64,000 nt of DNA. Origin: Candidatus Saccharimonadales bacterium (lineage in GTDB: Bacteria > Patescibacteriota > Saccharimonadia > Saccharimonadales > UBA4665). The translations under genes and the position numbers were made by a program. The stretch covers positions 38,019 to 102,018 of the forward strand of contig JBBRZB010000001.1 in NCBI GenBank assembly GCA_038237095.1, written 5' to 3'. The notes under the pieces are model-generated. The model was not told the DNA's origin. It was given only the letters and a program-made list of their open reading frames with translations, and searched no databases. Shown in pieces: positions 26,689-47,842 of the stretch; position 1 is the stretch's first letter, and the number at the start of each line of letters is the position of its first letter.

Positions 26689-27153
26689 ATGTCGAGAAAT
26701 CAATTATTACTCAATCTTGCCGAGAACTTAACTATCTTTGTTAAGCATATGCACCCGCAGAGCACGCCTGAAAACGATAAGCTGTGTATCAGTATTTTTG
26801 GTAAGCAATTATCACCAGCCCAGAAGCACGCATTGATGATTATTGGCAGTGATGGGGAAATGAATATCAAGCAGCTCGCAACAGTGCTCAAAATTACCTC
26901 CGGTGCCGCGACGCAGCACGTTGGCGCGCTTGAGTCGCTCGGTGCTGTGGAACGTGTCATGAGCGAGGCGGACCGTCGTGAAGTGTTTATTCGAGTCACC
27001 GATAAAGGCAAGAGTATGGTGGCTGCTATTCGATCAGAATTTTTGACTGGTTTGGAAGCTGCTTTTGAGGAATTGGATGACGCTGAGCTGGAACAATTTG
27101 TTCAATTGATGACAAAAGCTAATACTAAATATGTAACTGAGGAGCAGGCGTAA
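26689..27153 (+). CDS. MarR-family transcriptional regulator
   Basis: Winged HTH (MNIKQLATVLKITSGAATQHVGALESLGAVERV...DRREVFIRVTDKG). Confidence 0.85.
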   Translation: MSRNQLLLNLAENLTIFVKHMHPQSTPENDKLCISIFGKQLSPAQKHALMIIGSDGEMNIKQLATVLKITSGAATQHVGALESLGAVERVMSEADRREVFIRVTDKGKSMVAAIRSEFLTGLEAAFEELDDAELEQFVQLMTKANTKYVTEEQA

Positions 27154-29282
27154 TGATGAGCAAATTAGGAGATTTTATTGTAAAACGACGATGGTGGATC
27201 GTGGCTGTCTGGGTCATTGCCGCCATATTAATCGTTAGTCTATCGCCTAAGTTGAGCAGCATTGAAAGTGACGATCAAAGTAGTTTCTTGCCCAAAACCT
27301 ATGAATCAGTTCAAGCCGGTGACATTGCTAAAAAAGTTTCCGCTCACAGCACCGCTCCAACTGACGTTATCGTATTCAAGAACAGTTCTGGCGCTGCTCT
27401 AAGCACCGACGACCAAGTAAAAATCACACATATTGTAACTACGTTAAATAATGAAAAAATGGCTCATATAATTAGTGTGAGCTCAAGTTCACAGCAACTT
27501 GCACCCGATCAAAAAACGCAACTCGGCGCTGTTGTTTACACTGGTAACGGACAAGACAAGGCTTCCATAAACGCGGTTAAGACGGTGCGCCAAGCATTGG
27601 CCAAGCAGGTTGCTGGCACGAGTTTGACGGCGGGTTTAACTGGCGGCCAATCAATTGGCTATGACACGCAGGACTCCGCGAATCGCGCTTTGCAAATAGT
27701 TAGTATTGGCACTATTTTGCTGGTGCTCGTCTTGCCAGCGTTTATTTTCCGCAGCCCATTAGCCGGCTTATTCCCAGTAATCGCGGTCAGTATTGTGTAT
27801 ACCATTTCTAGCTCATTGATTGCCGACGCGGGCCATTTATTTGGTTTCCATGTTTCTCAGCAGCTAAGTATATTGTTCACAGTTGTACTGTTTGGTATTG
27901 GCACGGATTATATATTGTTCCTGTTCTTCAGATATCGCGAACGATTGCGTAGCGGGGACCATACCCGTGGCGCTGTGTCATTTGCTTTGAGCCGTGCGGG
28001 AGAAGCAATTCTATCAGCTGCGCTAGTAGTTTTGACCTCGTTCGCGGCACTATTCTTTGCTAAGTTTGGTATCTTTTCATCGCTCGCACCAGGTCTTGTT
28101 ATCTGTGTGGCGGTTATGATGCTCGCGGCACTAACGCTGGTGCCTGCATTGTTGGCAATCATTGGCGAAAAAGTATTTTGGCCAAGTAAGGCTTGGATGA
28201 TTAAGGCCGAGAAGCCAACCATTTCAAAGAAAATTGGCGGTTTGATTGCGCGCCGCCCCGGAATTGTCACGGCCACGGTCATAATATTCTTGGTTGTGCT
28301 TGCAGCGTTTAGCACGACATTTAAATCAGACTTTAGTTCGTTTAGCCAGCCACCAAAGGGTACTCCCTCTGCCGCAGCCTATAACCAGCTAACGGCCGCC
28401 TACCCAGCCGGAACGCTTAACCCAACGCAGGTGTATGTGAAGAGTACAGCAACCCTTACTGCTAAGGATTTACAACCACTGTCCGACAAGCTCCGACAAA
28501 CCGACGGTGTATCGGCTGTTTTGCCACCGGTCATTGTAGCTGACGGCAAGACGGCAGAACTAACTGTTATTTTGAAGAGTGACGCGTACAGCGCGGCTGC
28601 AATTAATGACATCGCGGGGCCGATTCGTGAGGCTGCGCATACGTTTGATACTTCCACTAACACAGTCTATGTCGGTGGTGTAACATCCATTTTTGCCGAT
28701 GTAAAAAACGTGACTAATCGTGACTTGCGGGTTATTTTCCCAATCGCCGCGTTGTTCATCTTCATCATTCTTGCTGTACTGCTTCGAAGTCTTGTGGCGC
28801 CACTGGTATTGTTGCTTTGCGTGAGCTTAGGATACGCTGCCACGTTGGGTGCTACGACGCTAATATTCCAGACAATTGGCGGCAGCAGCGGCATCATTTC
28901 GTTCATTCCGTTGTTTATGTACATTTTCGTGGTGGCGATTGGTACGGACTATAACATTCTGACAATAACTAGATTACGTGAAGAGGTTAGGGAAGGTCAT
29001 TCACCGCGAAAAGCGGCTGATCTAACTGTTGAGCACAGTAGTGCCACCGTTGCCGCAGCTGGCTTAATCCTGGCTGCAACTTTTGGCTCGATGATGCTTG
29101 GTGGCCTTACATTCCTAACCCAAATGGGCGCCGCGATCGCCATAGGCGTGTCGCTAGCCGCATTTGTCATCGCGCCATTCCTCATCCCGAGTCTATCGGC
29201 AGTTATTGGCTATAAAATTTGGTGGCCGGGTCACCGTGCTGCACCAATCAAGGTTAAAGCTAACATCAAGGGTAAAAAGTAG
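27153..29282 (+). CDS. MMPL-family (RND superfamily) membrane transporter
   Basis: Two 6-TM bundles, each with a GTDYILF/GTDYNIL motif, plus large extracytoplasmic loops. The start overlaps the marR stop (TAATG). Confidence 0.85.
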   Translation: MMSKLGDFIVKRRWWIVAVWVIAAILIVSLSPKLSSIESDDQSSFLPKTYESVQAGDIAKKVSAHSTAPTDVIVFKNSSGAALSTDDQVKITHIVTTLNNEKMAHIISVSSSSQQLAPDQKTQLGAVVYTGNGQDKASINAVKTVRQALAKQVAGTSLTAGLTGGQSIGYDTQDSANRALQIVSIGTILLVLVLPAFIFRSPLAGLFPVIAVSIVYTISSSLIADAGHLFGFHVSQQLSILFTVVLFGIGTDYILFLFFRYRERLRSGDHTRGAVSFALSRAGEAILSAALVVLTSFAALFFAKFGIFSSLAPGLVICVAVMMLAALTLVPALLAIIGEKVFWPSKAWMIKAEKPTISKKIGGLIARRPGIVTATVIIFLVVLAAFSTTFKSDFSSFSQPPKGTPSAAAYNQLTAAYPAGTLNPTQVYVKSTATLTAKDLQPLSDKLRQTDGVSAVLPPVIVADGKTAELTVILKSDAYSAAAINDIAGPIREAAHTFDTSTNTVYVGGVTSIFADVKNVTNRDLRVIFPIAALFIFIILAVLLRSLVAPLVLLLCVSLGYAATLGATTLIFQTIGGSSGIISFIPLFMYIFVVAIGTDYNILTITRLREEVREGHSPRKAADLTVEHSSATVAAAGLILAATFGSMMLGGLTFLTQMGAAIAIGVSLAAFVIAPFLIPSLSAVIGYKIWWPGHRAAPIKVKANIKGKK

Positions 29283-29346
29283 CTATTATTTTCAGCGAGA
29301 CACTATACAATAACAAGTAATTGATAATTCAAAAGGGAGACCGATT

Positions 29347-30825
29347 GTGGCGGCAAAGAAAAATGGGAATGGTGGGACAAATCACTGGTTAATACTGATT
29401 CTATTGGCCTTGGCACAGTTCATGGTTATTTTAGATGTCTCAATCGTCAATGTGGCATTGCCCGCGATACAAAATAACTTCCACATGAGCCAGACCAGCC
29501 TACAGTGGATTGTCACGGCCTACACCTTGGCTTTCGGTGGATTCTTGCTTCTTGGCGGTCGAGCCGCCGATTTATTCGGTCGGCGTCGCATGTTCTTGAT
29601 TGGTGTGTTCTTGTTTACACTCGCTTCGCTTGCCGACGGCTTGGCCCAAACAGGTGGCATGCTCATCGTGTTCCGTGGGCTACAGGGCTTATCAGCAGCG
29701 ATTATGTCGCCGGCTGCTCTTTCAATTGTGCTTGTGACCTATCGGGAAGGTCATGAACGAAACGTCGCTCTATCTGTTTGGGGTGCTGTCGCCGCTGGTG
29801 GAGCTGCTGTAGGCGTGTTGCTAGGCGGCATTCTGACGCAGTATTTGGGTTGGCGCTGGAACTTCTTCGTGAACGTTCCTGTGGGTATTGGTGTATTCAT
29901 TGCTGCGACTCGCCTTCTTGATAAACATGAAAGTACCGTCGAGCATAATAATCTCGATTTGCCTGGTGCCGTACTGGCGACTGGTGGTCTCATGACTCTT
30001 GTATACGCGCTCGTGAAGGCACCCTCGAACGGCTGGCTTTCAACGACATCACTGGTTCTTTTCACGATTTCCGCTGTCGCACTAATAGGCTTCATAATTA
30101 ATGAAGGACGAGCCAAGCACCCATTGATGCCGCTACACATTTTCAAGATTCGTAACCTTTCTGGTGCGAATGGCGTGATGTTGTGCATGGCCGCTGGATT
30201 ATTCGCAGTCTTCTTCTTCACGACGCTCTATTTGCAGTTAGTATTGCACTATTCACCCGTGAAAACTGGGTTTAGTTTCTTGGTAGTACCGGTTTGTATC
30301 GCGATCACCGCTACTAATGTGCCACGGGTTATTCAAAAGATTGGTTATCGACCTATTCTTATCGTCGCGCCATTGTTGCTTACTGTGGGGCTGTTCATGC
30401 TTTCGCACATTCCAGTTAACGGTACGTTTTGGGGCAATGTCGCTCCGGGCATGATTGTCATGGCCTTTGGTATGGGCGCGACTTTCGTGAGCGCTACTAT
30501 CGCTGCAACTTCTGGTGTGCCACACGAGGAGTCTGGCTTGGCCTCAGGTATCTTAAATACTTCGCAACAGATTGGTGGTGCAATAGGACTCGCGGTACTG
30601 ACTGGTATTGCCGCCTCAACTTCGACGGCCTTCATTCACAGTCTCAATTTACAGATGCCACCAACCCCTGCAATTATTGCTGCCGCGACGGTGCACGGTT
30701 TCCAGCGTGGATACTTGATTGCGTCAACGTTTGGTATTGTTGCGTCACTCATCGCCGTCTTTGTCATCAAACAGAAAAAGGGCGAGAAAGTAGCGGTCGA
30801 CATGGAAGCTATGGCTGGCGCATAA
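29347..30825 (+). CDS. MFS transporter, DHA2 (EmrB/QacA-like, 14-TM)
   Basis: Motifs LDVSIVNVALPAI and GGRAADLFGRRRMF (MFS motif A). 492 aa with about 14 hydrophobic segments. GTG start after aaggga. Confidence 0.88.
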   Translation: MAAKKNGNGGTNHWLILILLALAQFMVILDVSIVNVALPAIQNNFHMSQTSLQWIVTAYTLAFGGFLLLGGRAADLFGRRRMFLIGVFLFTLASLADGLAQTGGMLIVFRGLQGLSAAIMSPAALSIVLVTYREGHERNVALSVWGAVAAGGAAVGVLLGGILTQYLGWRWNFFVNVPVGIGVFIAATRLLDKHESTVEHNNLDLPGAVLATGGLMTLVYALVKAPSNGWLSTTSLVLFTISAVALIGFIINEGRAKHPLMPLHIFKIRNLSGANGVMLCMAAGLFAVFFFTTLYLQLVLHYSPVKTGFSFLVVPVCIAITATNVPRVIQKIGYRPILIVAPLLLTVGLFMLSHIPVNGTFWGNVAPGMIVMAFGMGATFVSATIAATSGVPHEESGLASGILNTSQQIGGAIGLAVLTGIAASTSTAFIHSLNLQMPPTPAIIAAATVHGFQRGYLIASTFGIVASLIAVFVIKQKKGEKVAVDMEAMAGA

Positions 30826-30859: not shown

Positions 30860-30885
30860 GTGGCCGGCATTTGTCGGCCACTTTT
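30860..30885 (+). terminator. intrinsic terminator after the MFS gene
   Basis: GTGGCCG-gcatttgt-CGGCCAC followed by TTTT. Confidence 0.7.
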
Positions 30886-30934
30886 CATGCTTGAACTAGT
30901 AACGCATATACAGCGATGATACTGCTCATGCTTT

Positions 30935-30943
30935 TGCTATACT
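30935..30943 (+). promoter_or_regulatory. extended -10 element upstream of cassette 1
   Basis: TGcTATACT, with the ATG at 30954 only 10 nt downstream. Confidence 0.4.
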
Positions 30944-30953
30944 TATCAGTAAG

Positions 30954-31481
30954 ATGAGCCAAACAGCGTCCAGCCAATCGGATAAAGTTACGGTTAGTGG
31001 CGAGCACGAACCAAACGTCACTAATACGGCTGCCTCACAGCGCCCGCAGCTACTCTATGTTGGTGTCGTTTTTCTAATTGCCATTGGTATGCTTGTCGGT
31101 ATTTTGTATTCACAGAACCACAAAAAGAAGCCACAAACTGTGACAGCGGTGTGCTCGAGCACATTTATAAAACAATCAAATTCAATACTCCAACAACCTG
31201 ACACTGATAATCTCGGTAGGCTAGCGAATACCGTCGAGGCCACTAAGAATTATGCTCAGGATCCCAACTGCCTATATATTGTGACATTGTATTATGCGGC
31301 AATTGGAGACAAGACGCAGGCTGCCAGTTCACTTAAAGCCACGAAAGCCGTGTATAACGCGAACACTGGTTTTAGCACCAGTTTCAGCCCACCAGCGAGC
31401 CTCACTTATCTCGAAAGCGTCGTCCATGCGGCACTCACAACCACTGACAATATGCAGAGCACTGTGGAGTCACAGCTATGA
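30954..31481 (+). CDS. single-pass membrane protein, cassette 1 small subunit
   Basis: Polar N-tail, one TM helix (LLYVGVVFLIAIGMLVGILY), then a helical Ala/Thr-rich ectodomain. The stop overlaps the next start (ATGA). Confidence 0.6.
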   Translation: MSQTASSQSDKVTVSGEHEPNVTNTAASQRPQLLYVGVVFLIAIGMLVGILYSQNHKKKPQTVTAVCSSTFIKQSNSILQQPDTDNLGRLANTVEATKNYAQDPNCLYIVTLYYAAIGDKTQAASSLKATKAVYNANTGFSTSFSPPASLTYLESVVHAALTTTDNMQSTVESQL

Positions 31482-33631
31482 TGAGATATCAAGGATTACC
31501 CCATATCAAACCTCAGGTGGGCTTTTTCATAATCTTTGCTCTAGGTCTATTCGGCCTGCTACTTCAAGCGCCTGCTGCTTCTGCTGTTGCCAAAACTGCT
31601 GGCTATTTGAACGCTAATATTCCTCCATCTGGTTCACCAGCATCGACGATCAACACGGTTGTGGGTCTTGAGAACCAGTGCACGAGTGAACTTAACACTG
31701 CACGCAGCGGCGGTGGTAGCGCTCGCAACATTGTTAATGCCGCGGCTTATGTTCAGACCACATGGCTCAGTCAGCGTAGTGACCCAACTAATAGTTTGAG
31801 TACGACAATTTCACCTGGTACCTCGGCAATAAATATGCAAATCAACGAGTATGATTTCTTATGCGCTATTGTGACGCAGCCGGCATCAGGCTCAACGTTT
31901 CCAATAGCAACCAGCCAAGTAACTGCGGGTAGATATCCCAATGAACGACCCCCAGTGCCAGACACTGTAGGCAGCATTAACGCGGCTTCGCGCTACGAGA
32001 CAAACGATCGCATTGATTCCATTACTGTTCCGCCAGGAAGCGGTTCGATTGTTTTTGTTCCTAAAACGCTGGGCTATAAGCGCGACAATGCCAGTCGTTA
32101 TTGGTTTGCAGCGCCAGTCGATTTTATTTACAAAACACCGACGCCTTTAGCACCATCAACGAGCTACACAGTCACGGTGAGTGTGAAATTTCGTGACATC
32201 GCTACCTACCATGACTATGGCCCGACACCTGACGTTGCTAATTGTTCTACACCGGGAAAAAGGTCATGTAGCCGCTGTTCTTTGCCAGATGGCACGGGTA
32301 TAGATGTAGCCTACAATAATTTCAATGCGTGTGGGCAGCAAACCGTAACTCGAACTTTTACATTCAAAACATCTGGTCCGCCACCGAGTTGTTCACCAGG
32401 CAGCCCCGATGTTGGCACGTTCATTCAGCCAGGGGACAGCGCTTCTTTACGACTCAGTGTTTCAAAAGCCCAACCGACTCCTCAAGACGTAACATACTCG
32501 ATTACCAATTCAATCACTGGTGTCGTGACAACTGGCATCGCGCATTTGCCGGCTAATAGCACCACGACGTCGCCAGCCGTTTCTTTGCCACCGTTTAGTT
32601 CGGCTGGAACGTACTCAATTACTTGGACAGTGCCGAACTTGTCGGGGGAGTGTAAGGGGACGATTAATGTCGTCGATTTACCGTACTTTAATGTCTATGG
32701 CTCGGGGGTGCGATCGGGCGGTGATTTCCCGAGTAGCTGTAGTGGTAACGGAGTTCTCGCCAGCTGGTTTGATAACAATTCAGGGCACATGTATGGCTCA
32801 AGCACCGGCTTAAACGCCATCGCCATGGTTAATATTGTTGGTTTTGCCTCCAATCAAACAGCTCGTGGTAGTCCGACTCGTCTAACATTCGCGAATACGG
32901 CAGGTGTCAGCGGCGTAGGCATTAGCCCTAATTTGGGGGGAAGTTTTGATACTGGCGGATCGTATTGTTTTGACGACCCAGCTGAACCAACTGGTGCAAC
33001 CGATCCTGGTGCGAGCATGTCAGTTGTTGGCCAAACGGGTGTGCGCCATCGCGGTACTGCTAGCGCACCTAGCTCGCTGCGAATTACGGGCGGCGTCATT
33101 AAAAAAGCTCAAAATCTCAGCGTCTTTGTGAATGGTGATGTTTATATCAGTGGAGATGGCATCAGCTACGATGACTCAACGTGGACAAGCGCAGCCGACA
33201 TTCCATCATTTGTGTTAGTTGCAACAGGCAACATATACATTGATGCGGGTGTGACGCAGCTTGATGGCGTCTACATTGCCAAACACACTGCCTCCGGCAC
33301 GGGTGGTCAGATTTACACCTGCGCTGATGACTTAGGCGTACTGTACAAATCGGGCGATATGTACAATCAGTGCAATCAGCAGCTTACAATACACGGAGTT
33401 TTTGAAGCAGATCGAGTGAATCTAATGCGCACTTTTGGAACGCTCAAGGATGGCGCTTCGGCGGCTCCTTCGAGTTGTACTGATGGTGGCGCGCCAAATG
33501 ATCGCAAGACTTGTTCAGCCGAAGTTTTCGATTTTAGCCCCGAGCTTTATCTCTCCAAGCCCAATATTAAATCTACGAGTAGCAGCGCGGTACGCTATGA
33601 CGCAATAGTTAGTCTGCCCCCGATCCTATAA
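31478..33631 (+). CDS. large secreted protein, cassette 1 (unique N-region + shared C-terminal domain)
   Basis: Signal-peptide-like N-terminus (..LLLQAPAASA|VAK). 717 aa. The C-terminal 326 aa are paralogous to 35908-36888. Confidence 0.75.
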   Translation: MMRYQGLPHIKPQVGFFIIFALGLFGLLLQAPAASAVAKTAGYLNANIPPSGSPASTINTVVGLENQCTSELNTARSGGGSARNIVNAAAYVQTTWLSQRSDPTNSLSTTISPGTSAINMQINEYDFLCAIVTQPASGSTFPIATSQVTAGRYPNERPPVPDTVGSINAASRYETNDRIDSITVPPGSGSIVFVPKTLGYKRDNASRYWFAAPVDFIYKTPTPLAPSTSYTVTVSVKFRDIATYHDYGPTPDVANCSTPGKRSCSRCSLPDGTGIDVAYNNFNACGQQTVTRTFTFKTSGPPPSCSPGSPDVGTFIQPGDSASLRLSVSKAQPTPQDVTYSITNSITGVVTTGIAHLPANSTTTSPAVSLPPFSSAGTYSITWTVPNLSGECKGTINVVDLPYFNVYGSGVRSGGDFPSSCSGNGVLASWFDNNSGHMYGSSTGLNAIAMVNIVGFASNQTARGSPTRLTFANTAGVSGVGISPNLGGSFDTGGSYCFDDPAEPTGATDPGASMSVVGQTGVRHRGTASAPSSLRITGGVIKKAQNLSVFVNGDVYISGDGISYDDSTWTSAADIPSFVLVATGNIYIDAGVTQLDGVYIAKHTASGTGGQIYTCADDLGVLYKSGDMYNQCNQQLTIHGVFEADRVNLMRTFGTLKDGASAAPSSCTDGGAPNDRKTCSAEVFDFSPELYLSKPNIKSTSSSAVRYDAIVSLPPIL
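32651..33628 (+). repeat. paralogous C-terminal domain, copy 1
   Basis: Long identical peptide runs shared with copy 2: FNVYGSGVRSGG, HMYGSSTGLNAIAMVNIVGFAS, DIPSFV, VATGNIYID, SGDMYNQCN, RVNLMRTFGTLKD, CSAEVFDFSPELYLSKPNIKS. Confidence 0.9.
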
Positions 33632-33671
33632 GCTTATCGAGGGTGTAGCTCTTTATATCTTGCACCGTTAA

Positions 33672-33687
33672 TGCTTTAATTAAAGCA
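33672..33687. promoter_or_regulatory. perfect 16-bp palindrome between the two cassettes
   Basis: TGCTTTAATTAAAGCA, 17 nt upstream of the cassette-2 ATG. Confidence 0.4.
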
Positions 33688-33703
33688 GAAGCGAATTACG
33701 TAT

Positions 33704-34282
33704 ATGAGCGGTGAAGAAAAAATAGCAAAAATTGCCGACAACGAGAGTGTAGTTGTGGCCGAAACGGGTTCTAAATCCAAGCCCTCTAAAAAGAAGGTTA
33801 TTGGACTAAGCTTAACGGTTCTAGTTTTATTGGTTCTAGGCGGCGCGGCCTATGCATTAGCTTCTTCTAAATCCAGCCCCAAGGTTAAAGTTACGATTGA
33901 TCCGCATAAGAGTGTTTCGGCTCAAGTAGCCAATCTAAGTAGTAGCGAAACCAAGTCACTTGCGCAAAGCAACGTAAATGCCAGTAAAGATCCAAATGCC
34001 GCCTATGCTAAGGCAGTCGCACAGAATCAAACCGGTGATTCCAAAGCAGCTGTCGTGACCTTTAAAGCCGTAACGGCAACGGGCGCTGTAAATTACATGG
34101 TCTATAACGACTATGCGCTGGCCGCGGCTTCAACCGGTGATTTAAAATTAGCAATTCAGAATATGCAGAAAGCAATCGATACACTTAATAATGACAAAAC
34201 GGTTTCCGCGGGTCTAAAGACTTCCGAAACGACTCGTATGCAAAACAAGCTTGATTGGTTTAAACTGGAGGCTCAATCGTGA
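33704..34282 (+). CDS. single-pass membrane protein, cassette 2 small subunit
   Basis: Lys-rich N-tail, one TM helix (VIGLSLTVLVLLVLGGAAYALA), then a helical Ala-rich ectodomain. The stop overlaps the next start (GTGA). Confidence 0.6.
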   Translation: MSGEEKIAKIADNESVVVAETGSKSKPSKKKVIGLSLTVLVLLVLGGAAYALASSKSSPKVKVTIDPHKSVSAQVANLSSSETKSLAQSNVNASKDPNAAYAKAVAQNQTGDSKAAVVTFKAVTATGAVNYMVYNDYALAAASTGDLKLAIQNMQKAIDTLNNDKTVSAGLKTSETTRMQNKLDWFKLEAQS

Positions 34283-36891
34283 GCCGCTCATTTAAACTGA
34301 GTGCTACACTCGCCATCTTTGCTGTGGTTACGGCAGCCGCGCTTGGGTTTATGGGTCACGCTAAGGCGTTCAATAACACCTACCCAGACACTGTCGGCGA
34401 CATATCAAGCGGCGCCAGTGTATATGCTGTAATCGGTCAAACACAATTCGTCCAGAGAACTGGTAGTAATTTACGCGTATGGTTCCCGACTAGTGCCGGC
34501 GGCACAATTACTATTGGGGACGGTAACTTCTGTTCAAGCAATGCCTATGATTATATCCAGAATGGTGACTACTTTGCGTCGCACGGCATTGGTAGCGGTA
34601 CTGCTGTTACTAATTTTGTCGTCAATGGTGTTACGAAGTATGGGTATTACTATGGGTCTGGCGACGCTCGCTGCAAGAGCAATATCACATTTGCAGTCAG
34701 CGGGCTGGGTGGAATCGAGAACGGTTATTATTACGCGGATATTACGATTTCGTATAGAGACCTAAGAGCTGGTGCATATGATGGTCTTATGAATTACTTT
34801 AGGATTGGCTCTTCGGTGGCAACCAGCTTTATTGGTGTACGCACCCCCCCAGGAGGAACATGGGGAACTGGATATGATTCTACGCAAGAGCAGGTGGATA
34901 CATCACCGACAAACTCAACGTATTACGAGCGATTTGGTTCACCGTGCAATCTTGCTGCAAATCAGACCGCACAACTCAAATTCTTTGACCTTGATAATGC
35001 CGGTGGTAGTGGTGCGCAGCTAAATGGTGATGTATCCGTAATTCTGTATGACAGAACAGGCGGTGCATCCATACCGGTAACACTATCTAGCCCAAGTGGC
35101 GGCTGGGGAGCCGGATCAACGCCCACACACTGGGTCCCAGTGAGCGTAAATAATGCCGCACAAACTATCAATTTCGTTGCCGCGCCGGGGCATAAATACT
35201 TGCTTGAAATACTCAATGTGTACTACAACAACACGATTCAATTCAGTTTACCGTATTCGCAGATTAACTATCTTAGCTGTAAGGGTGCCACGGTCACTCC
35301 AGGAGCCACAGTTGATAAGCCGGTTGTCGGCACAGGCACGACCGTAACATTCGTTAATACAGTTACTACTAGTGGTGCTGTCGGTACTGGCGCAGATAGT
35401 TTCGATTGGGCAACTGCCAGCAGCGGTGCGTCGCCACTCCCAGGTGCGCCTGCAGGAGCAGTCACAAGCGGCGCTAACTTATTACTGACTCCTGATCGGC
35501 TGGCGGCGTCGACATCATATAGTGTGGCCTTCGCAACGCCCGGCACGTATTGTAGAAGAATCACCGTGAGTGGTTATCCGGCATATGTAAAAACTCCCAT
35601 TGGAACATCGGCGCAAGCTTGTGTTACCGTATTGCCGGTTCCAACCTGTACCGGCGTTTCATCACCATCGACGGTACAGCCTGGTGATAAGACTGATGTT
35701 ACAGTTGGGTTTAGCGGCCCTGGGAGCGCTTCAATCACCAGCGTTACGTATACTGCGGCTGGGTTTATTCCAGGTAGTGGGAGTGCTTCGATTAACCCCC
35801 CAGCTGGGAGCGGCAAAGCAACGATCTTTGGCATTACCGTCCCGTCAACCGCGGGAACATATCCTATATCTTGGTCTCCCGTTCCAAACCCCACTGCGAT
35901 GCCGCCATGTAACGGTACCGTCAATGTCGTTGATCTACCAATCTTTAATGTCTATGGATCGGGTGTTCGTTCTGGTGGCGGTTTCCCAGCAAACGGCAGT
36001 GCCGGTAATGGGATATTGGCCAGTTGGTTTGATAACAGTGCAGGACATATGTATGGCTCAAGCACGGGTTTAAACGCTATTGCCATGGTTAATATCGTGG
36101 GCTTTGCCAGTAAACAAGCTGTATTCGGTGCTGGTAACCCAACCGGCCTGTCATTTGCTAACACGGCACTTATTAGCGGCTCATCACCAAGCGCGACACT
36201 AGGCGGTAATTTCGATACCGGTGGCTCATACAGCTTTGATGATCCAGGTCAGCCTGGAGGAGCGAGTGACCCAGGCGGGTCTATTTCGGCCACGACACTA
36301 TCGAGTATGAACGGTGTATTCAACCACAGTGGTGACCTGAATATTGCCGGCGGCACCATAAAGATTAAGCACAATGTGAGTATTTTCGTAAATGGGAACG
36401 TATATATAGGACCAACGGGAATCGGCTATGACACCGGCACAGTGTGGGGGACAAGCACAGACATACCCAGCTTTGTCGTAGTCGCGACTGGCAACATCTA
36501 CATTGATAATGATGCGGCACAAGTTGATGGTGTTTATATTGCGAAACCTAGTGGGGGCGGGGGAGGCCAGATCTACACTTGCGCCCAAGGCATGAACTCG
36601 TTCTTCAACAGTGGTGATATGTATAACCAATGCAACAATCAGCTGACAATTCACGGTGTATTTGTTGCCAATCGAGTCAATCTAATGCGTACCTTCGGAA
36701 CTCTTAAAGATGCCACTAGCCCAGCACCATCAAACTGTACTGATGGTGGGATTCCTAATGAGCGTAAGGTCTGTTCAGCTGAAGTCTTTGATTTTAGCCC
36801 CGAACTCTATTTGTCCAAGCCAAACATTAAATCTTCGAACACGGCGACAGTGCAGTACGACTCTATAGTTAGCTTGCCGCCTGTGTTGTGA
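34279..36891 (+). CDS. large secreted protein, cassette 2 (unique N-region + two Cys-delimited beta-sandwich-like modules + shared C-terminal domain)
   Basis: Signal-peptide-like N-terminus (..GFMGHAKA|FNN). 870 aa. The C-terminal 327 aa are paralogous to 32651-33628. Confidence 0.75.
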   Translation: MSRSFKLSATLAIFAVVTAAALGFMGHAKAFNNTYPDTVGDISSGASVYAVIGQTQFVQRTGSNLRVWFPTSAGGTITIGDGNFCSSNAYDYIQNGDYFASHGIGSGTAVTNFVVNGVTKYGYYYGSGDARCKSNITFAVSGLGGIENGYYYADITISYRDLRAGAYDGLMNYFRIGSSVATSFIGVRTPPGGTWGTGYDSTQEQVDTSPTNSTYYERFGSPCNLAANQTAQLKFFDLDNAGGSGAQLNGDVSVILYDRTGGASIPVTLSSPSGGWGAGSTPTHWVPVSVNNAAQTINFVAAPGHKYLLEILNVYYNNTIQFSLPYSQINYLSCKGATVTPGATVDKPVVGTGTTVTFVNTVTTSGAVGTGADSFDWATASSGASPLPGAPAGAVTSGANLLLTPDRLAASTSYSVAFATPGTYCRRITVSGYPAYVKTPIGTSAQACVTVLPVPTCTGVSSPSTVQPGDKTDVTVGFSGPGSASITSVTYTAAGFIPGSGSASINPPAGSGKATIFGITVPSTAGTYPISWSPVPNPTAMPPCNGTVNVVDLPIFNVYGSGVRSGGGFPANGSAGNGILASWFDNSAGHMYGSSTGLNAIAMVNIVGFASKQAVFGAGNPTGLSFANTALISGSSPSATLGGNFDTGGSYSFDDPGQPGGASDPGGSISATTLSSMNGVFNHSGDLNIAGGTIKIKHNVSIFVNGNVYIGPTGIGYDTGTVWGTSTDIPSFVVVATGNIYIDNDAAQVDGVYIAKPSGGGGGQIYTCAQGMNSFFNSGDMYNQCNNQLTIHGVFVANRVNLMRTFGTLKDATSPAPSNCTDGGIPNERKVCSAEVFDFSPELYLSKPNIKSSNTATVQYDSIVSLPPVL
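35908..36888 (+). repeat. paralogous C-terminal domain, copy 2
   Basis: See copy 1. Many of the DNA differences I compared fall at third codon positions. Confidence 0.9.
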
Positions 36892-37006
36892 TACAATTTA
36901 GGAAAGGAACATAACCGGAAATAAACATTATGGGTGGGCCCATCACAAACCAACCAGTACAACAGATACTAAGCGATAATGCTTATGCTATAATCGGGGT
37001 CAGAAT

Positions 37007-38050
37007 ATGAGCCTGTCATTTAGCGGTGTATCCGACTTCTTTGGCCTCGACATCGGCAGTACGGCAGTACGGTTAGTCCAACTGCGTGGTGCTGGGCTCC
37101 CAAAGGTGTTAGTTAAGTACGCGTATGTGCCACTTGATAGCAATATTTCACTCAGCGATTCAAAATCTGATCAGCAGAAATTAGCTCAAACTATCGCGCA
37201 ATTGGTGTCACAAGCGCATGTCACAACTCGAAACGTTGCCGTTGGTATTCCTTCAAGTCGTGTGTTTACCACTGTTGCGGATGTTGACCGGCTCCCAGGT
37301 AATGAGATGGCCAAAGCGATCCGTTATCAAGCTGATTCACTGATTCCTACGCCTTTAGCCGAATCTAAAATTGATTGGGCGATTTTGGGTGACGCGCCAA
37401 GCGACAAAACCAAGCAGAAAGTTCTACTCAGTAGTGTACCGAACGCCTTTGTTGAGTCGCGTCTTGATATGCTCGAATCAATCGGGTTGAATGTGGTGGC
37501 TTTTGAGCCAGACAACTTAGCTATGGCTCGTTCGCTCATCGCGCCAGACGCAGCCGAAGCTCAATTATTACTTGATGTCGGCCGAAAATCGACTGATTTA
37601 GTCGTGACATTAAACGGTGTACCACACTTAACACGCTCGATTCCAACTGGTGTTGAAGCAGTCGTTCGATCGGCGATGCAGAATCTTAACATCGATGAGA
37701 AACAGGCCGATCAATTTGTCTTCAAGTTCGGTTTGAGTAAGGACAAGCTTGAGGGCCAAGTCTACCAAGCGATTAGCACCACAATTGATCTTTTGACCAC
37801 AGAAATTGATAAGTCGATCAAGTTCTTCCAGACACGTTATACGACTGCTAAAATCGAACGCATGGTCGTTACGGGCGGGGCATCAGTTATACCTGAGTTC
37901 CCACTGTATTTGGCGAATAAATTCGGTGTAAACGTCGAAATTGGCAACGCATGGCGCAATGTGACATTTAGCCGCGACCGTCAGAACGAATTATTGGCGA
38001 TTTCAAACCAATTCGGCGTGGCCGTCGGCTTGGCGGAGCGGAGCGAATAA
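37007..38050 (+). CDS. pilM: type IV pilus assembly protein PilM
   Basis: Actin-like ATPase fold motifs (GLDIGSTAVRLVQL, VVTGGASVIPEF). Extended -10 TGcTATAAT at 36986-36994. Confidence 0.9.
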   Translation: MSLSFSGVSDFFGLDIGSTAVRLVQLRGAGLPKVLVKYAYVPLDSNISLSDSKSDQQKLAQTIAQLVSQAHVTTRNVAVGIPSSRVFTTVADVDRLPGNEMAKAIRYQADSLIPTPLAESKIDWAILGDAPSDKTKQKVLLSSVPNAFVESRLDMLESIGLNVVAFEPDNLAMARSLIAPDAAEAQLLLDVGRKSTDLVVTLNGVPHLTRSIPTGVEAVVRSAMQNLNIDEKQADQFVFKFGLSKDKLEGQVYQAISTTIDLLTTEIDKSIKFFQTRYTTAKIERMVVTGGASVIPEFPLYLANKFGVNVEIGNAWRNVTFSRDRQNELLAISNQFGVAVGLAERSE

Positions 38051-38745
38051 TGATTCAGTTTAATCTTTTACCGGATGTAAAACTCGATTACATCAAAGCC
38101 CAACGCACACGTCGTTTAGTGTTCAGCGCTAGTTTTATTGTCAGTGCTGCAGCTATTGCACTGTTAGTGCTTATGCTAAGCATCGATGGTCTTCAGAAGA
38201 AACATTTGCATGATTTGAGCGCTGATATAACTTCCGAAAGCCAGACATTACGGAAGAAGCCAAATATTAATACTATTTTAACCGTTCAAAATCAACTTGA
38301 GAGTCTAACAGCATTGCATGACACGAAGCCAGCCTCGGCACGCCTATTCACATATCTCAACCAGTTAACCCCCGCAAATGTGAGTGTGAGCAGTCTGAAC
38401 ATTGATTTTGCTCAGGATACGATAATCATCGGTGGAAACGCTGATGCGCTGAGCAGCGTCAACCAGTTTGTCGACACGCTTAAATTAACGACCTATACCG
38501 CTACGAGTAATGACGCTAACCATACTGTCACCAAAGGGAACGCTTTTAGCAGTGTGGTTTTGACTGGCTTTGGGCTTAATAACGCTTCAAAAGATAAGTC
38601 TCAAGCAGCGAATTACACCGTGACGCTCACCTACGATAAGGCAATTTTTGACATTACCAAGCAGGTTAGCTTGTCGGTTCCATCGATTACCACCCGTGCT
38701 CAACTACAATCCCCTGCGGATCTGTTTAAGGCTGGAGGGAATTAA
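38050..38745 (+). CDS. pilN: PilN-like pilus assembly protein
   Basis: Starts MIQFNLLPD followed by one TM helix, typical of PilN. The start overlaps the pilM stop (TAATG). Confidence 0.7.
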   Translation: MIQFNLLPDVKLDYIKAQRTRRLVFSASFIVSAAAIALLVLMLSIDGLQKKHLHDLSADITSESQTLRKKPNINTILTVQNQLESLTALHDTKPASARLFTYLNQLTPANVSVSSLNIDFAQDTIIIGGNADALSSVNQFVDTLKLTTYTATSNDANHTVTKGNAFSSVVLTGFGLNNASKDKSQAANYTVTLTYDKAIFDITKQVSLSVPSITTRAQLQSPADLFKAGGN

Positions 38746-38747
38746 CC

Positions 38748-39425
38748 ATGGCTAAGCTAGAGATTTCAACAAAGCGAGTCGCAATTAGCAAAGCCAATGC
38801 TCAAATGGTGGGTGTTGTGGCTGCCGCGTCGTTCGTAACAATTTTTTGTCTCGTAGCCAGCAGTGCAGTGTGGAGCCAAAACAAGTACCAAGCGCATCTT
38901 ACCAAAGCAAAAAGCATAGCTAACGCGCAATTGCTGAAGAATGTTGATGCATTTGATAGCTTATCTAAATCCTACGATTCGTTTGTCGCGCAATCACCCA
39001 ACGCTATTGGTGGTAATCCTGCTGGTACAGCTGACAATGACGGCACTAATGCAAAAATTGTCCTCGACGCGTTACCTAGTAGCTATGATTTCCCAGCTCT
39101 AACTGCAAGTGTTGAAAAAATTCTAACTGACCGTAGTTTTACTGTTAGTAGTATTACTGGTACTGATGATCAAGTTGCTCAAGGCAGTAATTCATCAAGC
39201 CCTACGCCACAAGCAGTACCAATCCCATTCTCATTCACCGTTACATCAACCAACTACAATGCCATCCAACAGCTCATTGCAACCTTACAATCATCAATTC
39301 GTCCAATACAGATTGATTCGCTCACCATGAGCGGTAATACCAATAACATGCAACTCACCGTCAACGCCCACACCTATTATCAGCCTGGGAAAAGCTTAAC
39401 AATTACGAAGCAGGTAGTTAAATGA
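38748..39425 (+). CDS. PilO-like pilus assembly protein (positional call)
   Basis: Single TM helix and a periplasmic-type domain. It occupies the position of pilO after pilN. Confidence 0.5.
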   Translation: MAKLEISTKRVAISKANAQMVGVVAAASFVTIFCLVASSAVWSQNKYQAHLTKAKSIANAQLLKNVDAFDSLSKSYDSFVAQSPNAIGGNPAGTADNDGTNAKIVLDALPSSYDFPALTASVEKILTDRSFTVSSITGTDDQVAQGSNSSSPTPQAVPIPFSFTVTSTNYNAIQQLIATLQSSIRPIQIDSLTMSGNTNNMQLTVNAHTYYQPGKSLTITKQVVK

Positions 39426-39673
39426 AACAAAAAGATTTCGCCCTTATCGCGGTTATCGTTTTCATAAGCGCAATTATTTCGCTGTTCGTAAGCAAAGCTA
39501 TCTTTGCACCACCAAAAAATCGCCAACAACAGGTTGAAGTTGTACAAGCAATTACGACTGATTTCCCAAAACCCGACACGAACTACTTTAACGCGACAGC
39601 CTTTGACCCCACCAAGCCGATTAATGTTGGCCAGAATGCTAACACAGATCCATTTAACGGATCTGGTAATTAA
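39422..39673 (+). CDS. small single-TM protein in the pilus operon
   Basis: 83 aa with TM helix FALIAVIVFISAIISLFV. ATGA overlap with the upstream gene. Confidence 0.5.
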   Translation: MKQKDFALIAVIVFISAIISLFVSKAIFAPPKNRQQQVEVVQAITTDFPKPDTNYFNATAFDPTKPINVGQNANTDPFNGSGN

Positions 39674-39742: not shown

Positions 39743-41548
39743 ATGAGTCTATTGGCCACAGGATCTGGTCAGCAAATCGAGGATGTGCTCGTTAAAACGG
39801 GCGCTATTACTGCTGATAAACTTCACGCCGCACATGAAGAGGCAAAGAAACATGGCGATCCACTGATTAGCTATTTATTAAAGAATAAACTTATTAACGA
39901 TGAGCAACTCACAAAAGCCAATGCGACAATCACTAAAGTTCCGTACGTAAACCTGCTCTCAGCTCGAGTCGATCCGGATATCCTGGCATTATTACCGAAA
40001 GAAATTGCCGAGCGCTACATGGCAGTACCTCTTGGAGAGATGCAGCACCGCTTGGTTGTAGCTATGCTTGACGCAGGAAACGTGCAGGCAGTAGATTTCC
40101 TGAGCAACAAGATTGGACGTGCGCTCAAAGTGTATGTTGCGAGCGAAACTGGTATCAAACAAGTCTTAAAGCAATACCAAGGTAAACTCGACACCCAAAT
40201 GAACGAGGCGCTCCAGATTAATATGGATGAGCCAGAGGGCGAAGCGGATATCAAGAACAAAAAGAAAGACGACAAAAAAGACGATGATATTAAGGCTCTT
40301 GTTGAAGATTCGCCAATTAGTAAGGCCTTAACGGCTATCTTAGAATACGCGGCTCATAACCGTGCGAGTGATGTTCACATCGAACCAATGGAAAAAGAGC
40401 TTAAGGTGCGTTGCCGTATTGATGGTGTACTCCGTGAAATCATGCGCCTGCCGAAGAACACCGAACCAGCGCTCATTTCACGCATTAAAATTTTGTCCAA
40501 TCTAAAAATTGACGAACACCGAATGCCGCAAGATGGCCAGTTTACGGTCGCTGTTGATAACCGTAAGATTGACTTACGTATCGCCATTGCACCGATTGTG
40601 TGGGGTGAGCAAGTTGTGATTCGATTGCTGGATAAAACAGGTACCTCCATGAAACTCGAGGATATGGGCTATGCCGGTAGGGCACTACGTACGATTCGAA
40701 AAGGTTTGGAGCGACCGAACGGTATGATTCTTACGAGTGGGCCAACTGGGTCTGGCAAGTCCACCTCACTCTATGCGTTGATTCAGGAAATCATGAATGA
40801 CTCGATTAATATCGTCACGCTGGAAGACCCAGTCGAGTACAAGATGGACGGCATTAATCAGATTCAAGTCAACGCCGAGGTGGGGCTGACATTTGCCTCA
40901 GGTTTGCGCAGTATTTTGCGTCAAGACCCTGACGTAGTGATGGTAGGAGAGATTCGCGATAAAGAGACCGCTCAGCTGGCCGTTCAGGCTGCTTTAACTG
41001 GTCACTTGGTGTTTAGCACGCTACACACCAATAGCGCGGCCGGTATTCTGCCACGTTTGCTAGATATGGGTATTGAGCCGTTCTTGATTGCCAGTACAGT
41101 GCATACCGTTATTGGCCAGCGATTAGTTCGGAAAATTGCAGACACAGGCAAAGAGACCTACCAATCGACTGAAGTCGAAACGGCTGCCATCCAGTCAACC
41201 TTGGCAAAACTTTTGCCAGCTGCAGACGAGCAAGTTGAGGCTGCCAGTAAAGACCTTGGGTATAAAAGCTTGCCCTTAGTAAACCAAACCGCTTATACTT
41301 TAAGTAAGGGCACTGATAGCCCAGATACGCCAGGTGGCTACAAGGGTCGAATTGGTTTGTATGAGGTTTTTGAAATCTCAGATAATATCCAATCGCTGAT
41401 CATGAAGCAGGCCACCAGTAGCGAAATCGAAAAAGCTGCGCAGGCAGAAGGCATGGTTACCATGCGTCAAGACGGTTATTTAAAAGCCTTAGATGGTCGT
41501 ACTACGCTTGCAGAGATTAACCGCGTAGCGGCAGAGGACAATGCATAA
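39743..41548 (+). CDS. pilB: type IV pilus extension ATPase PilB (GspE family)
   Basis: T2SSE N-terminal domain. Walker A SGPTGSGKSTS, Asp box, Walker B VVMVGEIRD and His box STLHTNSA. Confidence 0.95.
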   Translation: MSLLATGSGQQIEDVLVKTGAITADKLHAAHEEAKKHGDPLISYLLKNKLINDEQLTKANATITKVPYVNLLSARVDPDILALLPKEIAERYMAVPLGEMQHRLVVAMLDAGNVQAVDFLSNKIGRALKVYVASETGIKQVLKQYQGKLDTQMNEALQINMDEPEGEADIKNKKKDDKKDDDIKALVEDSPISKALTAILEYAAHNRASDVHIEPMEKELKVRCRIDGVLREIMRLPKNTEPALISRIKILSNLKIDEHRMPQDGQFTVAVDNRKIDLRIAIAPIVWGEQVVIRLLDKTGTSMKLEDMGYAGRALRTIRKGLERPNGMILTSGPTGSGKSTSLYALIQEIMNDSINIVTLEDPVEYKMDGINQIQVNAEVGLTFASGLRSILRQDPDVVMVGEIRDKETAQLAVQAALTGHLVFSTLHTNSAAGILPRLLDMGIEPFLIASTVHTVIGQRLVRKIADTGKETYQSTEVETAAIQSTLAKLLPAADEQVEAASKDLGYKSLPLVNQTAYTLSKGTDSPDTPGGYKGRIGLYEVFEISDNIQSLIMKQATSSEIEKAAQAEGMVTMRQDGYLKALDGRTTLAEINRVAAEDNA

Positions 41549-41643
41549 AATGAACAAATTGTTAAAAGTTAGTAATAACAAACGTACGAGGTATACGTCT
41601 GTTGCTATGAGCTTTGAACGTGCAAATAATAAAGGGGTGGGAT

Positions 41644-42711
41644 ATGCAGGCACAACCAAGAATTGAAGTCTTACTAGACGAAGTTATCAAGAAAAAGGCT
41701 TCTGACTTACACATTCAGGTTGGTTTGCCACCGATGTTACGTGTCGATGGTTCACTAGTGCCCGTTACTGGCGCTGATATTCTCGATGAAGAGGCTATTG
41801 AGGCGCTTATTTTTGCCATTCTGGATGAAGACCAGAAGCAGATTTTACTAAAAGACAAGGAATTCGACTTTAGTTTTGCGTATGGTGATCTTGGTCGTTT
41901 CCGTGTGAACGCGTTCCATGAACGGGGTAACATGGCAGCTGCCTTGCGTCTAATTCCAAACGAAATTTTAACGATTGAACAGCTTGGTTTACCACAGATT
42001 GTAAACAAGTTCGCAGATTTCCCCCGTGGCCTAGTCTTGGTAACCGGCCCAACTGGATCTGGTAAGTCGACGACGTTGGCGGCCTTGGTCCATAAAATTA
42101 ACGTTGAAAAAGCGGTGCACATCGTAACTATCGAAGACCCGATTGAGTTTACCCACAAGTCGCAAAAATCAGTCATCGTACAGCGTGAGGTACACTATGA
42201 TACGTACTCGTTTAGCGCTGCGCTTCGTAGCGCATTGCGCGAAGACCCAGATGTCGTCCTCGTCGGAGAAATGCGTGACCTCGAAACGATTGCTAGCGCT
42301 ATTACCATCGCTGAAACCGGTCACTTAGTATTTGCCACGCTGCACACAAATAACGCCTCCCAGAGTATCGATCGTATGATTGACGTCTTCCCGCCACACC
42401 AACAACCGCAGATTCGCGCGCAGCTCGCTAATATCTTAATGTCTATCACATCACAGCGTCTGGTGCCTGCAATTGGTGGTGGCCGTATCGCCGCCGCTGA
42501 AATTTTGGTGGCTACACCAGCTGTTCGCAATATTATCCGCGAAGGCAAAAGCCATCAGCTAGAAGCCGTTATTCAGACTGGTGCAGAATTCGGTATGCAA
42601 TCCATGGACAAGACGCTTGCTGGTTTGATTCACGAAGGTCGCATCACGTACGAAGAAGCACGTAATGTTGCCGTCGACCTAGACGAACTAGACAGGTTAA
42701 TGAGAGGCTAA
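41644..42711 (+). CDS. pilT: twitching-motility retraction ATPase PilT
   Basis: Motifs ASDLHIQVG, Walker A TGPTGSGKSTT, VVLVGEMRD, ATLHTNNA and AIRNIIREGK. The ATG at 41644 follows aaaggggtgg. Confidence 0.95.
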   Translation: MQAQPRIEVLLDEVIKKKASDLHIQVGLPPMLRVDGSLVPVTGADILDEEAIEALIFAILDEDQKQILLKDKEFDFSFAYGDLGRFRVNAFHERGNMAAALRLIPNEILTIEQLGLPQIVNKFADFPRGLVLVTGPTGSGKSTTLAALVHKINVEKAVHIVTIEDPIEFTHKSQKSVIVQREVHYDTYSFSAALRSALREDPDVVLVGEMRDLETIASAITIAETGHLVFATLHTNNASQSIDRMIDVFPPHQQPQIRAQLANILMSITSQRLVPAIGGGRIAAAEILVATPAVRNIIREGKSHQLEAVIQTGAEFGMQSMDKTLAGLIHEGRITYEEARNVAVDLDELDRLMRG

Positions 42712-44405: not shown

Positions 44406-44496
44406 CCCCTGTGTAAAACTGCTTGCTTTTTTGCGGTCACCAGCATATCATCTAACCATAAGCATCAAACATTAATCTGCAAAGGGGGCATTTGCA

Positions 44497-44967: not shown

Positions 44968-44990
44968 CAATACTTAGAACGCTATAAAAA

Positions 44991-45024: not shown

Positions 45025-45076
45025 TGGTACCGCAAGGATTTAATGTCATCAGCGCTCATGTGGTACCATTGAGCTA

Positions 45077-47834: not shown

Positions 47835-47842
47835 GTTACAAT

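Follow-up and report, generated by a model that had tools for sequence, protein, structure and literature searches.

Two cassettes of a modular secreted protein and a TPR-type membrane partner adjoin a type IV pilus locus in Saccharibacteria

We analysed a stretch of 64,000 nucleotides from a Candidatus Saccharimonadales bacterium (GenBank assembly GCA_038237095.1, contig JBBRZB010000001.1, positions 38,019 to 102,018), hereafter the window, and focused on four open reading frames (ORFs) that lie directly upstream of a type IV pilus (T4P) locus. The four ORFs form two cassettes, each made of a small gene for a single-pass membrane protein and a large gene for a secreted protein. The large proteins end in a conserved core that defines a large family, with thousands of clusters at 50% identity and without a Pfam, NCBIfam or PHROG entry, and the small proteins are, as a family, membrane-anchored tetratricopeptide repeat (TPR) proteins. 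The cassette pair is a real feature of the genome and not a chance arrangement. The core family and the gene pair appear to be undescribed, and we class them with the known modular proteins, accessory or adhesive, that associate with pili. We favour, at somewhat short of an even chance, the view that the unit is an accessory module of the retractile T4P, specific to Saccharibacteria and present here twice. Tentatively, and with rather more doubt than confidence, each large protein would be a modular adhesin that associates with the pilus without being a pilin; it would work like PilY1/PilC but stands outside that family. The four ORFs are as follows.

30954 to 31481, forward strand: small1, partner of large1, 175-residue ORF, single-pass membrane protein.
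31478 to 33631, forward strand: large1, 717-residue ORF, secreted protein.
33704 to 34282, forward strand: small2, partner of large2, 192-residue ORF, single-pass membrane protein.
34279 to 36891, forward strand: large2, 870-residue ORF with a GTG start, secreted protein.

The ORF calls recovered exactly the coordinates and lengths given in the original prediction, which had been made from the letters of the window alone. Direct reading of the sequence also located the two 4-nt stop/start overlaps it had described, ATGA at 31478-31481 and GTGA at 34279-34282. A GGAG motif is positioned 8 nt upstream of the large1 start, inside the 3' end of small1, and a GGAGG motif 7 nt upstream of the large2 start, inside the 3' end of small2. 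The overlaps together with these internal motifs are consistent with translational coupling of the small and large genes.

The two large proteins share a C-terminal region with 59% identity over 426 residues (E 2e-149), and their N-terminal regions, of about 300 and 450 residues respectively, are unrelated. Both begin with a signal peptide, as read from the translations, in which a charged n-region leads into a hydrophobic h-region and then an AXA-type site. Cleavage is predicted after residue 36 in large1 (ASA/V) and after residue 30 in large2 (AKA/F). We define the core as the last ~320 residues, from VVDLPYFNVYGSGVRSGG to the C-terminal SLPP[IV][LYF]. A full-length AlphaFold2 model of large2, in which a shallow alignment underlies the head, reached a predicted local distance difference test score (pLDDT) of 64.9 and a predicted template modelling score (pTM) of 0.40. 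The layout of both proteins, encoded on the forward strand and including immunoglobulin (Ig)-like domains, is given below.

large1, residues 1-36: signal peptide; residues 37-300: head, lineage-restricted.
large1, residues 301-397 (32378-32668): Ig-like domain, with a weak PKD match at residues 313-394.
large1, residues 398-717 (32669-33628): conserved core, C-terminal end ...SLPPIL.
large2, residues 1-30: signal peptide; residues 31 to ~335: β-sandwich head in the AlphaFold2 model (residues 60-330 all-β, pLDDT 65-86).
large2, residues 338-440 and 444-549: Ig-like domains in the AlphaFold2 model (residues 338-440 and 444-550, pLDDT 70-83).
large2, residues 550-870 (35926-36888): conserved core, with residues 556-652 showing no resolved fold, a β-helix at residues 660-810 (pLDDT 85-96) and a tail ending ...SLPPVL (residues 852-870 of low confidence).

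The large1 head has only weak relatives, in loci L013 and L043 (21-26% identity); here and below, L numbers refer to loci of relatives and P numbers to related proteins. Orthologues of the large2 head are found in P0002-P0005, which also keep the AKA/[FL]NNT[FY]PD junction at the cleavage site. As modelled, the β-sandwich heads and Ig-like spacers resemble those of surface adhesins.

Neither large1 nor large2 matched a family in Pfam, NCBIfam, PHROGs or the PDB sequences. When the window proteins, 24 core sequences and 52 full-length members were scanned against Pfam, NCBIfam and PHROGs, no family emerged for the core, and PDB sequence searches with single proteins and with the core profile gave no match to the large proteins. 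The heads of the 52 full-length members produced four sporadic Pfam matches, three of them to Ig-like families (CARDB, PKD, BiPBP_C). We then modelled the core from a 24-sequence alignment (mean pLDDT 62.5, pTM 0.66). Residues ~110-260 of this model have a pLDDT of 85-94 and form short strands typical of a β-helix of four to five rungs. A Foldseek search of the core model against the PDB revealed nothing significant. The best match was ComZ (E 0.49, probability 0.57, template modelling (TM) score 0.26), and the matches that followed were all generic β-helices, including hemolysin A, ice-binding proteins, bactofilin and tapirins. No significant match was obtained for the core model in BFVD, and the full-length model matched only generic β-sandwich strings (C3/CD109, fibronectin) at TM scores of ~0.1. 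The sequence-library and Foldseek searches, all without a significant match, thus agree with the earlier view that the large proteins belong to no described family.

The family itself is large. An exhaustive search of 1.84 billion cluster representatives (clustered at 50% identity) with a hidden Markov model (HMM) of the core retrieved 6077 proteins at E≤1e-3, including 2650 at E≤1e-30. A word-indexed homologue search with large2 returned seven relatives only, a core profile search 33 further ones, and a search with the 52-sequence full-length alignment eight proteins, none of which added anything. The word-indexed search understates the size of the family, with 7 proteins against the 6077 of the exhaustive search, and it missed the paralogue large1, which is present in the same collection as P0047 and is 59% identical over 426 residues.

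The core lies at the protein C-terminus in the best 150 of the 6077 HMM matches, and LPP[VI][LFY] constitutes the last five residues of aligned family members, with nothing beyond. Family lengths are bimodal. The short form (~350-420 residues) comprises a signal peptide that leads directly into the core, as in P0025 and P0034, and the long form (~630-1300 residues) comprises a signal peptide, a variable N-terminal region and the core. All complete members carry an N-terminal signal-like hydrophobic segment. The core harbors two invariant cysteines and two more that are almost invariant, which is consistent with an extracytoplasmic protein, and five polar residues that are invariant or nearly invariant (N628, D750, T767, R804 and E835 in large2 numbering). 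In some members the distal core is interrupted by an insertion of 130-300 residues at one site, between the LMRTxGSLxD and AEVFxFSPE segments. It is found in L010, L022, L030 and L032, where core matches are split, and in P0015, P0127, P0140, P0163 and P0168, and it may represent an extra displayed module. The C-terminal domain had been described as a conserved base that carries a variable head. Its role as a base is retained, and in some lineages it also occurs alone, as a signal peptide plus core without head or partner.

A genome scan with one genome per species and a single core motif yielded 63 loci, mostly titled Candidatus Saccharibacteria or Saccharimonadales. In the window, the cassettes lie, as originally proposed, immediately upstream of, and co-directional with, a T4P locus, which contains pilM, pilN, pilO, pilB, pilT and pilC. 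The linkage extends to relatives, since a pilM homologue follows the core in 57 of the 63 loci. The gap between the core and pilM has a median of 123 nt and does not exceed 300 nt in 51 of these 57 loci. This adjacency spans wide divergence, with pilM identity down to 43-55%. Four of the six remaining loci run out of sequence downstream, and the other two, L016 and L060, are additional copies elsewhere in the genome. Each pilM locus contains one to three tandem family members, three being found in L013 and L038.

A family member is directly upstream of pilM in every metagenomic context examined (L001-L008). In L001, the closest relative, two cassettes have the MarR-MMPL-MFS neighbours that are also seen in the window. 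Two cassettes occur in L002 and L003 too, along with an extra small TPR protein. L004 to L007 each have a single short form that adjoins pilM, and the one family member of L008 lies in a fragmented gene call. The extra protein of L002 (5111-5746, 211 residues) is a third small TPR-like single-pass protein that precedes the first cassette without a large gene of its own. The short forms, devoid of both head and partner, still adjoin pilM, which shows that even by itself the core serves a pilus-related role. The cassettes of L002 and L004 are located between ychF and pilM. In the cultivated, oral-type Southlakia epibionticum, in which T4P genes are essential, ychF directly abuts pilM (PMC10633639). 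Thus, the cassette is absent at that locus.

Both small proteins contain a single hydrophobic segment, near residue 30, in agreement with the one transmembrane helix predicted for each. Their pairwise similarity is marginal (E 0.011). The original prediction could place none of the four proteins in a characterised family; this holds for the large proteins and not for the small ones, which as a family are membrane-anchored TPR proteins. In a family-level test, 24 of 44 partners matched Pfam TPR_2 (best E 8e-12). In the PDB, a profile of the 44 partners picked up Hop TPR2A, MamA, TOM70 and consensus TPR proteins (E 1e-11 to 1e-112 overall, and 1e-30 to 1e-112 for the consensus TPR structures). 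The 44 aligned partners are highly divergent, with a mean column identity of 17%.

Small2 belongs to the TPR-type partner group. Taken alone, it gave sub-threshold matches to TPR_8 (20.1 bits against a cutoff of 25.7), TPR_16 and MamA. It has orthologues in L001 (47% identity) and L002 (30%), and both of them accompany a head of the large2 type. Small1 alone had no match in Pfam or the PDB. It represents a separate subfamily whose TPR-like unit is seen only by profile-profile comparison, in which the subfamily aligns with the last TPR unit of the TPR-type partners (hhalign probability 96%, E 1.9e-9, 35 columns). The small1 ectodomain contains a cysteine pair (C67, C106) that is conserved in the subfamily alignment. 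In small2, the motif KSKPSKKK precedes the transmembrane segment, indicating an N-in topology with a TPR ectodomain, and an Arg/Lys-rich segment at this place is consistent across the partners. The ectodomain cysteine pair and the Arg/Lys-rich segment therefore argue for an N-in, C-out topology of the partners.

The pairing of small and large genes is maintained in relatives. Among 57 complete long forms, at least 46 follow an ORF of 141-339 residues with exactly one predicted transmembrane segment, a lower bound given that several apparent exceptions, such as L066, are start-codon artefacts of ORF calling. The gap between partner and long form ranges from -28 to +5 nt, and 23 of the 46 share the identical 4-nt overlap. 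Six short forms have upstream sequence that is long enough to judge (L004-L007, L055 and L067), and none of them is preceded by a single-transmembrane partner. The pair also stays intact away from pilM, in L016 between hisS and tig and in L060 beside a divergently transcribed PilX_N gene. The proposed architecture, with a variable head, a conserved base, a dedicated single-pass membrane partner and translational coupling, is thus borne out.

Comparison of the window with L001 indicated that the cassettes diverge far faster than the neighbouring genes. The encoded proteins are 92% identical for pilM, 85% for pilB, 83% for the MFS gene and 74-75% for the MMPL, pilN and pilO genes. Identity decreases to 47% for small2, 48% for the large2 head and 44-49% for the cores, and small1 and the large1 head have no counterpart. 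In L001, a different cassette replaces that of small1 and large1, and the cassette order is reversed.

The two parts of the large proteins have distinct histories. In each of the eight multi-copy genomes (8/8), the cores of paralogues are closer to one another than to any other core, with within-genome identities of 67% in the window, 58% in L001, 69% in L002, 46-47% in L013, 100% in L021, 70% in L028, 57% in L036 and 55% in L038. Core identity between unrelated genomes is 24-51%, and only L021 and L028, which are close relatives, exceed this across genomes (63-68%). Between the large2 head and heads of L001 and L002, identity is 47-49%, yet the corresponding cores share just 44% (L001) and 27% (L002) with that of large2. 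In 19 of 39 cassettes, the TPR partner and the head have the same best foreign cassette, compared with 6 of 39 each for partner versus core and for head versus core. These patterns identify the TPR partner plus head as the exchange unit. The Ig-like domain plus core are homogenised within a genome, and the head and partner are orthologous across genomes and exchanged together. The 19 of 39 shared best matches, and the pairs that remain intact off the locus in L016 and L060, also speak for a coupling of the small protein to its large partner.

The unit had been called a tandem duplication. This description fits only that segment of the large genes which encodes the Ig-like domain and the core; their heads are unrelated, and the small genes have just a single TPR-like unit in common. 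A simple recent tandem duplication is ruled out by the 76-81% identity of the core DNA copies, the unrelated heads and the barely related partners. At that level of DNA identity, conversion in the window is not recent. In L021, two family members (582-3359 and 4021-6546) have cores that are 100% identical over the last 320 residues and heads that differ (71% over 303 residues), a combination that indicates very recent gene conversion.

The favoured reading, an accessory T4P module with a PilY1/PilC-like adhesin, suggests the following mechanism. Sec would export each large protein. The C-terminal part, composed of an Ig-like domain, a region of ~100 residues, the short β-helix and the LPP[VI][LFY] tail, would then couple to the pilus apparatus or filament of its own genome. 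The strictly terminal LPPxx tail, modelled at low confidence, is a plausible docking peptide. The variable β-sandwich head would bind a surface ligand, most likely on the host bacterium. Finally, the co-translated TPR protein would hold or chaperone its cognate head at the membrane, near the assembly platform, until loading. Paralogy, head exchange and rapid divergence favour a role in recognition. A bolder extension, which we regard as rather doubtful, is that the cassettes constitute an unrecognised pilus-coupled class of host-recognition systems in environmental Saccharibacteria, with a genome-matched β-helix base attached to the T4P apparatus via its free LPPxx terminus and swappable head-plus-TPR-chaperone units that set host range, lost in those mammal-associated lineages that serve as laboratory models.

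The comparison with PilY1/PilC is based on several traits. PilY1 of Pseudomonas and Myxococcus and PilC1-PilC2 of Neisseria and Kingella are non-pilin proteins with a Sec signal peptide that are linked to type IVa pili, and they combine a conserved C-terminal biogenesis module with a variable N-terminal adhesion module, often as two to three paralogues (general knowledge and PMC11623550). The large proteins are likewise non-pilin, with a Sec signal peptide, a variable N-terminus and a conserved C-terminus. Unlike PilY1/PilC genes, the large genes lie upstream of pilM rather than in a minor-pilin operon, and their products have a translationally coupled TPR membrane partner and cores that evolve in concert. 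Membership of the PilY1/PilC family itself was rejected, as no PF05567 match was found in the window proteins or the 52 members and the core model is a β-helix and not a β-propeller. PilY1 is absent from the listed Foldseek matches of both the core and the full-length models.

Tapirins of Caldicellulosiruptor (PDB 6N2B, 6N2C) are tandem paralogues that carry signal peptides and are not pilins. They are encoded next to a T4P locus in a non-diderm bacterium and have a C-terminal β-helix and a role in substrate attachment. Their genes differ from the large genes in being downstream of the pilus locus and without a TPR partner. In addition, the tapirin β-helix is the binding module, whereas here the β-helix is conserved and the heads vary. 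A tapirin fold for the core was rejected (Foldseek E 4.0 and 8.5, probability 0.01, TM score 0.10-0.12). ComZ, a T4P-linked β-solenoid at the competence pilus tip of Thermus thermophilus (PDB 6QVI) and the best, non-significant structural match of the core, is a pilin with an N-terminal pilin helix, whereas the large proteins have Sec signal peptides and no N_methyl motif. PilX1 and PilX2 of Nanosynbacter lyticus TM7x are large T4P-locus proteins proposed to act as host-binding tip proteins, with an N-terminal hydrophobic pilin helix, a pilin globular domain and a variable lectin-like module at the C-terminus (PMC11623550). The large proteins have the opposite polarity, with a variable N-terminus and a conserved C-terminus, and no pilin domain. 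A pilin or pseudopilin identity was rejected for all four proteins, which gave no N_methyl (PF07963) or PilX_N match, whereas the pilins of the locus do match. A sortase substrate was also rejected, because LPP[VI][LFY] ends the protein and no hydrophobic segment or charged tail follows, as was a phage tail or tailspike protein, on the library and Foldseek results.

Several points weigh against the favoured reading. Pilus association and surface exposure of the large proteins, ligand binding and the role of the TPR partner are steps that we infer. Neither the sequence searches nor Foldseek revealed homology to any adhesin, or to PilY1/PilC, ComZ or tapirins. The large genes are positioned among the pilMNO machinery genes, whereas PilY1 genes lie with the minor pilins, and the locus has its own 508-residue PilX_N protein as a possible tip adhesin. 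The first ~107 residues of the core and its tail are modelled at pLDDT <50. The co-inheritance of partner and head could reflect simple physical linkage. The lack of a cassette at the Southlakia pilM locus, where T4P genes are essential, indicates that the module is not required for T4P function generally. Finally, the core has a function that does not depend on a head, as is shown by the head-less short forms.

These same short forms, together with the position by pilMNO, keep alive a structural reading, which we consider unlikely, of the large protein as an envelope-spanning structural part of the pilus machine. It would assemble around the pilus exit site, in the cell wall or outer layer, and stand in functionally for the secretin/PilQ-TsaP layer, which is missing from these non-diderm cells, with the TPR protein as an assembly factor like PilF/PilW/Tgl. 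The large gene sits with the pilM-N-O machinery and apart from the pilins, and head-less forms are kept beside pilM, so that the role of the core would be intrinsic. Within-genome homogenisation is expected if the core must fit its own machine. A TPR protein with a large exported partner also recalls a pilotin with its secretin, since the pilotins PilF/PilW/Tgl, and TadD, are small TPR proteins that serve T4P via a large exported partner. The resemblance has limits. Pilotins are outer-membrane lipoproteins with ~6 TPRs that act on secretins, whereas the small partners are single-pass, N-in proteins with one to three TPR units. Here a secretin is absent, and which type of partner occurs follows the variable head. 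A secretin (PilQ/GspD) was rejected for the large proteins, as no secretin or N0 domain was found with Pfam or NCBIfam, nor an AMIN or peptidoglycan-binding domain, in the window proteins and the 52 members. It would be unusual for a structural ring to occur as one to three paralogues whose heads are unrelated, to undergo cassette replacement between close relatives and to diverge so much more than PilM and PilB. The short forms have no TPR partner, and the module is absent at the Southlakia locus, where T4P are essential.

The adjacency to pilM might instead reflect co-regulation only, if the large proteins were pilus-independent surface adhesins or surface-layer proteins tethered by the TPR membrane protein. 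We assign this a low probability, although the β-sandwich/Ig-like architecture, the rapid evolution, the dedicated membrane partner, the extra copies away from pilM among housekeeping genes (L016) and a possible separate promoter before pilM would all fit. Co-regulation alone hardly explains a pilM adjacency of 57 out of 63 loci over wide divergence. The short forms keep this position without head or partner, and the conserved, genome-matched part is the core and not the head. Very unlikely, in our estimate, is a secreted β-helix enzyme or effector, for example a polysaccharide-degrading one, that acts on the host envelope after type II-like export or presentation aided by the pilus machinery, with the heads as targeting modules. 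The confident part of the core is a short β-helix, and the β-helix fold is common in polysaccharide lyases, hydrolases and tailspikes; N628, D750, T767, R804 and E835 are invariant or nearly so. However, sequence searches gave no enzyme family, the ~4-5 rungs had generic structural matches and none that was significant, and the core showed no recognisable catalytic motif.

Saccharibacteria attach to their hosts by means of T4P (PMC9894109, PMC11623550, PMC10633639). In ultrasmall episymbiotic Patescibacteria they are essential for attachment, and the determinants of host specificity are an open question. The module is a concrete and widespread candidate determinant of host-cell attachment, being exported, endowed with swappable heads and pilus-linked in most environmental Saccharibacteria examined, and the cassettes are among the fastest-evolving genes of the region. 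Even if its role proved to be structural or enzymatic and not adhesive, the module would add a new accessory component to the T4P of non-diderm bacteria. Neither the family nor a gene preceding pilM is described in the published Saccharibacteria T4P work on TM7i (PMC9894109), TM7x (PMC11623550) and Southlakia transposon sequencing (PMC10633639), in the oral TM7 pangenome (PMC7739484) or in the cryo-electron tomography of M. amalyticus (PMC11880426), and our literature searches found no description of the core family. Absence from the pilM locus of Southlakia, the sole laboratory model strain compared, may explain how the module escaped genetic screens. M. amalyticus displays pili and a "lance" with a barbed tip whose proteins were not identified (PMC11880426); we draw no link between it and the cassette.

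Two signals were observed upstream of small1.

30860 to 30885, forward strand: intrinsic-terminator-like hairpin and T run, which ends the upstream MFS gene and marks the 5' boundary of the unit.
30916 to 30943, forward strand: promoter-like site with a TG-extended -10 (TGCTATACT), 9/12 matches in a consensus scan.

The hairpin (30860-30881) reads GTGGCCGGC-ATTT-GTCGGCCAC followed by TTTTC, with a 9-bp stem that includes 7 GC pairs, and the terminator expected upstream of the unit is thus recovered as a GC-rich hairpin with a T run. The extended -10 element that had been noted is present, but its signal is weak, since promoter-like sites are no commoner across the whole region than in shuffled sequences. 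The TGCTATACT -10 lies only ~10 nt upstream of the small1 ATG, which implies that the leader is very short or absent. Likewise, pilM has a TG-extended -10, TGCTATAAT, ~10 nt upstream of its ATG (36989-37009). No Shine-Dalgarno motif was seen before small1 (30935-30956) or pilM (36989-37009). This suggests that the small1 and pilM transcripts are leaderless or nearly so, unlike the coupled large genes with their GGAG(G) motifs. No terminator was found between the cassettes or between the cassettes and pilM.

The pilus locus downstream of the cassettes comprises the following genes.

37007-38050, forward strand: pilM (Pfam PilM_2, E 1e-39).
38050-38745, forward strand: pilN (Pfam PilN, at threshold).
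38748-39425, forward strand: pilO-like gene.
39422-39673, forward strand: 83-residue ORF with a single transmembrane segment, between the pilO-like gene and pilB.
39743-41548, forward strand: pilB (Pfam T2SSE, E 9e-124).
41614-42711, forward strand: pilT (Pfam T2SSE, E 5.5e-50).
42713-43933, forward strand: pilC (Pfam T2SSF, E 6e-64).
43866 to 49309, forward strand: pilin cluster (Pfam N_methyl, Peptidase_A24 and PilX_N matches).
43866, 44497, 45926, 46744 and 47181, forward strand: starts of five prepilins.
45077-45916, forward strand: prepilin peptidase pilD.
47783-49309, forward strand: 508-residue PilX_N protein (E 2.8e-5, just under the Pfam cutoff).

The order of pilM, pilN, the pilO-like gene and the 83-residue ORF is kept in all related loci. 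The 83-residue ORF has no family match and is 36-75% identical among the related loci compared. SEML1_0107 of Southlakia, a gene of 228 nt at the same position, is essential in the transposon sequencing table (PMC10633639). The PilX_N protein closes the pilin cluster and is a candidate tip protein, in a position analogous to that of PilX1 of TM7x. It is followed on the opposite strand by a xerC-like integrase gene (49324-50247). An Rfam scan of the window gave nothing beyond five tRNA genes, namely Arg-CCT (50934-51008), an Asp/Gly/Thr cluster (55468-55772) and Val-GAC (58746-58822). Upstream of the cassettes are MarR, MMPL and MFS genes (26689-30825). The same set is located just upstream of the cassette in L001 (2066-6153) and nearby in L008 (626-4899), and the more distant relatives L002, L004 and Southlakia have ychF on that side instead.

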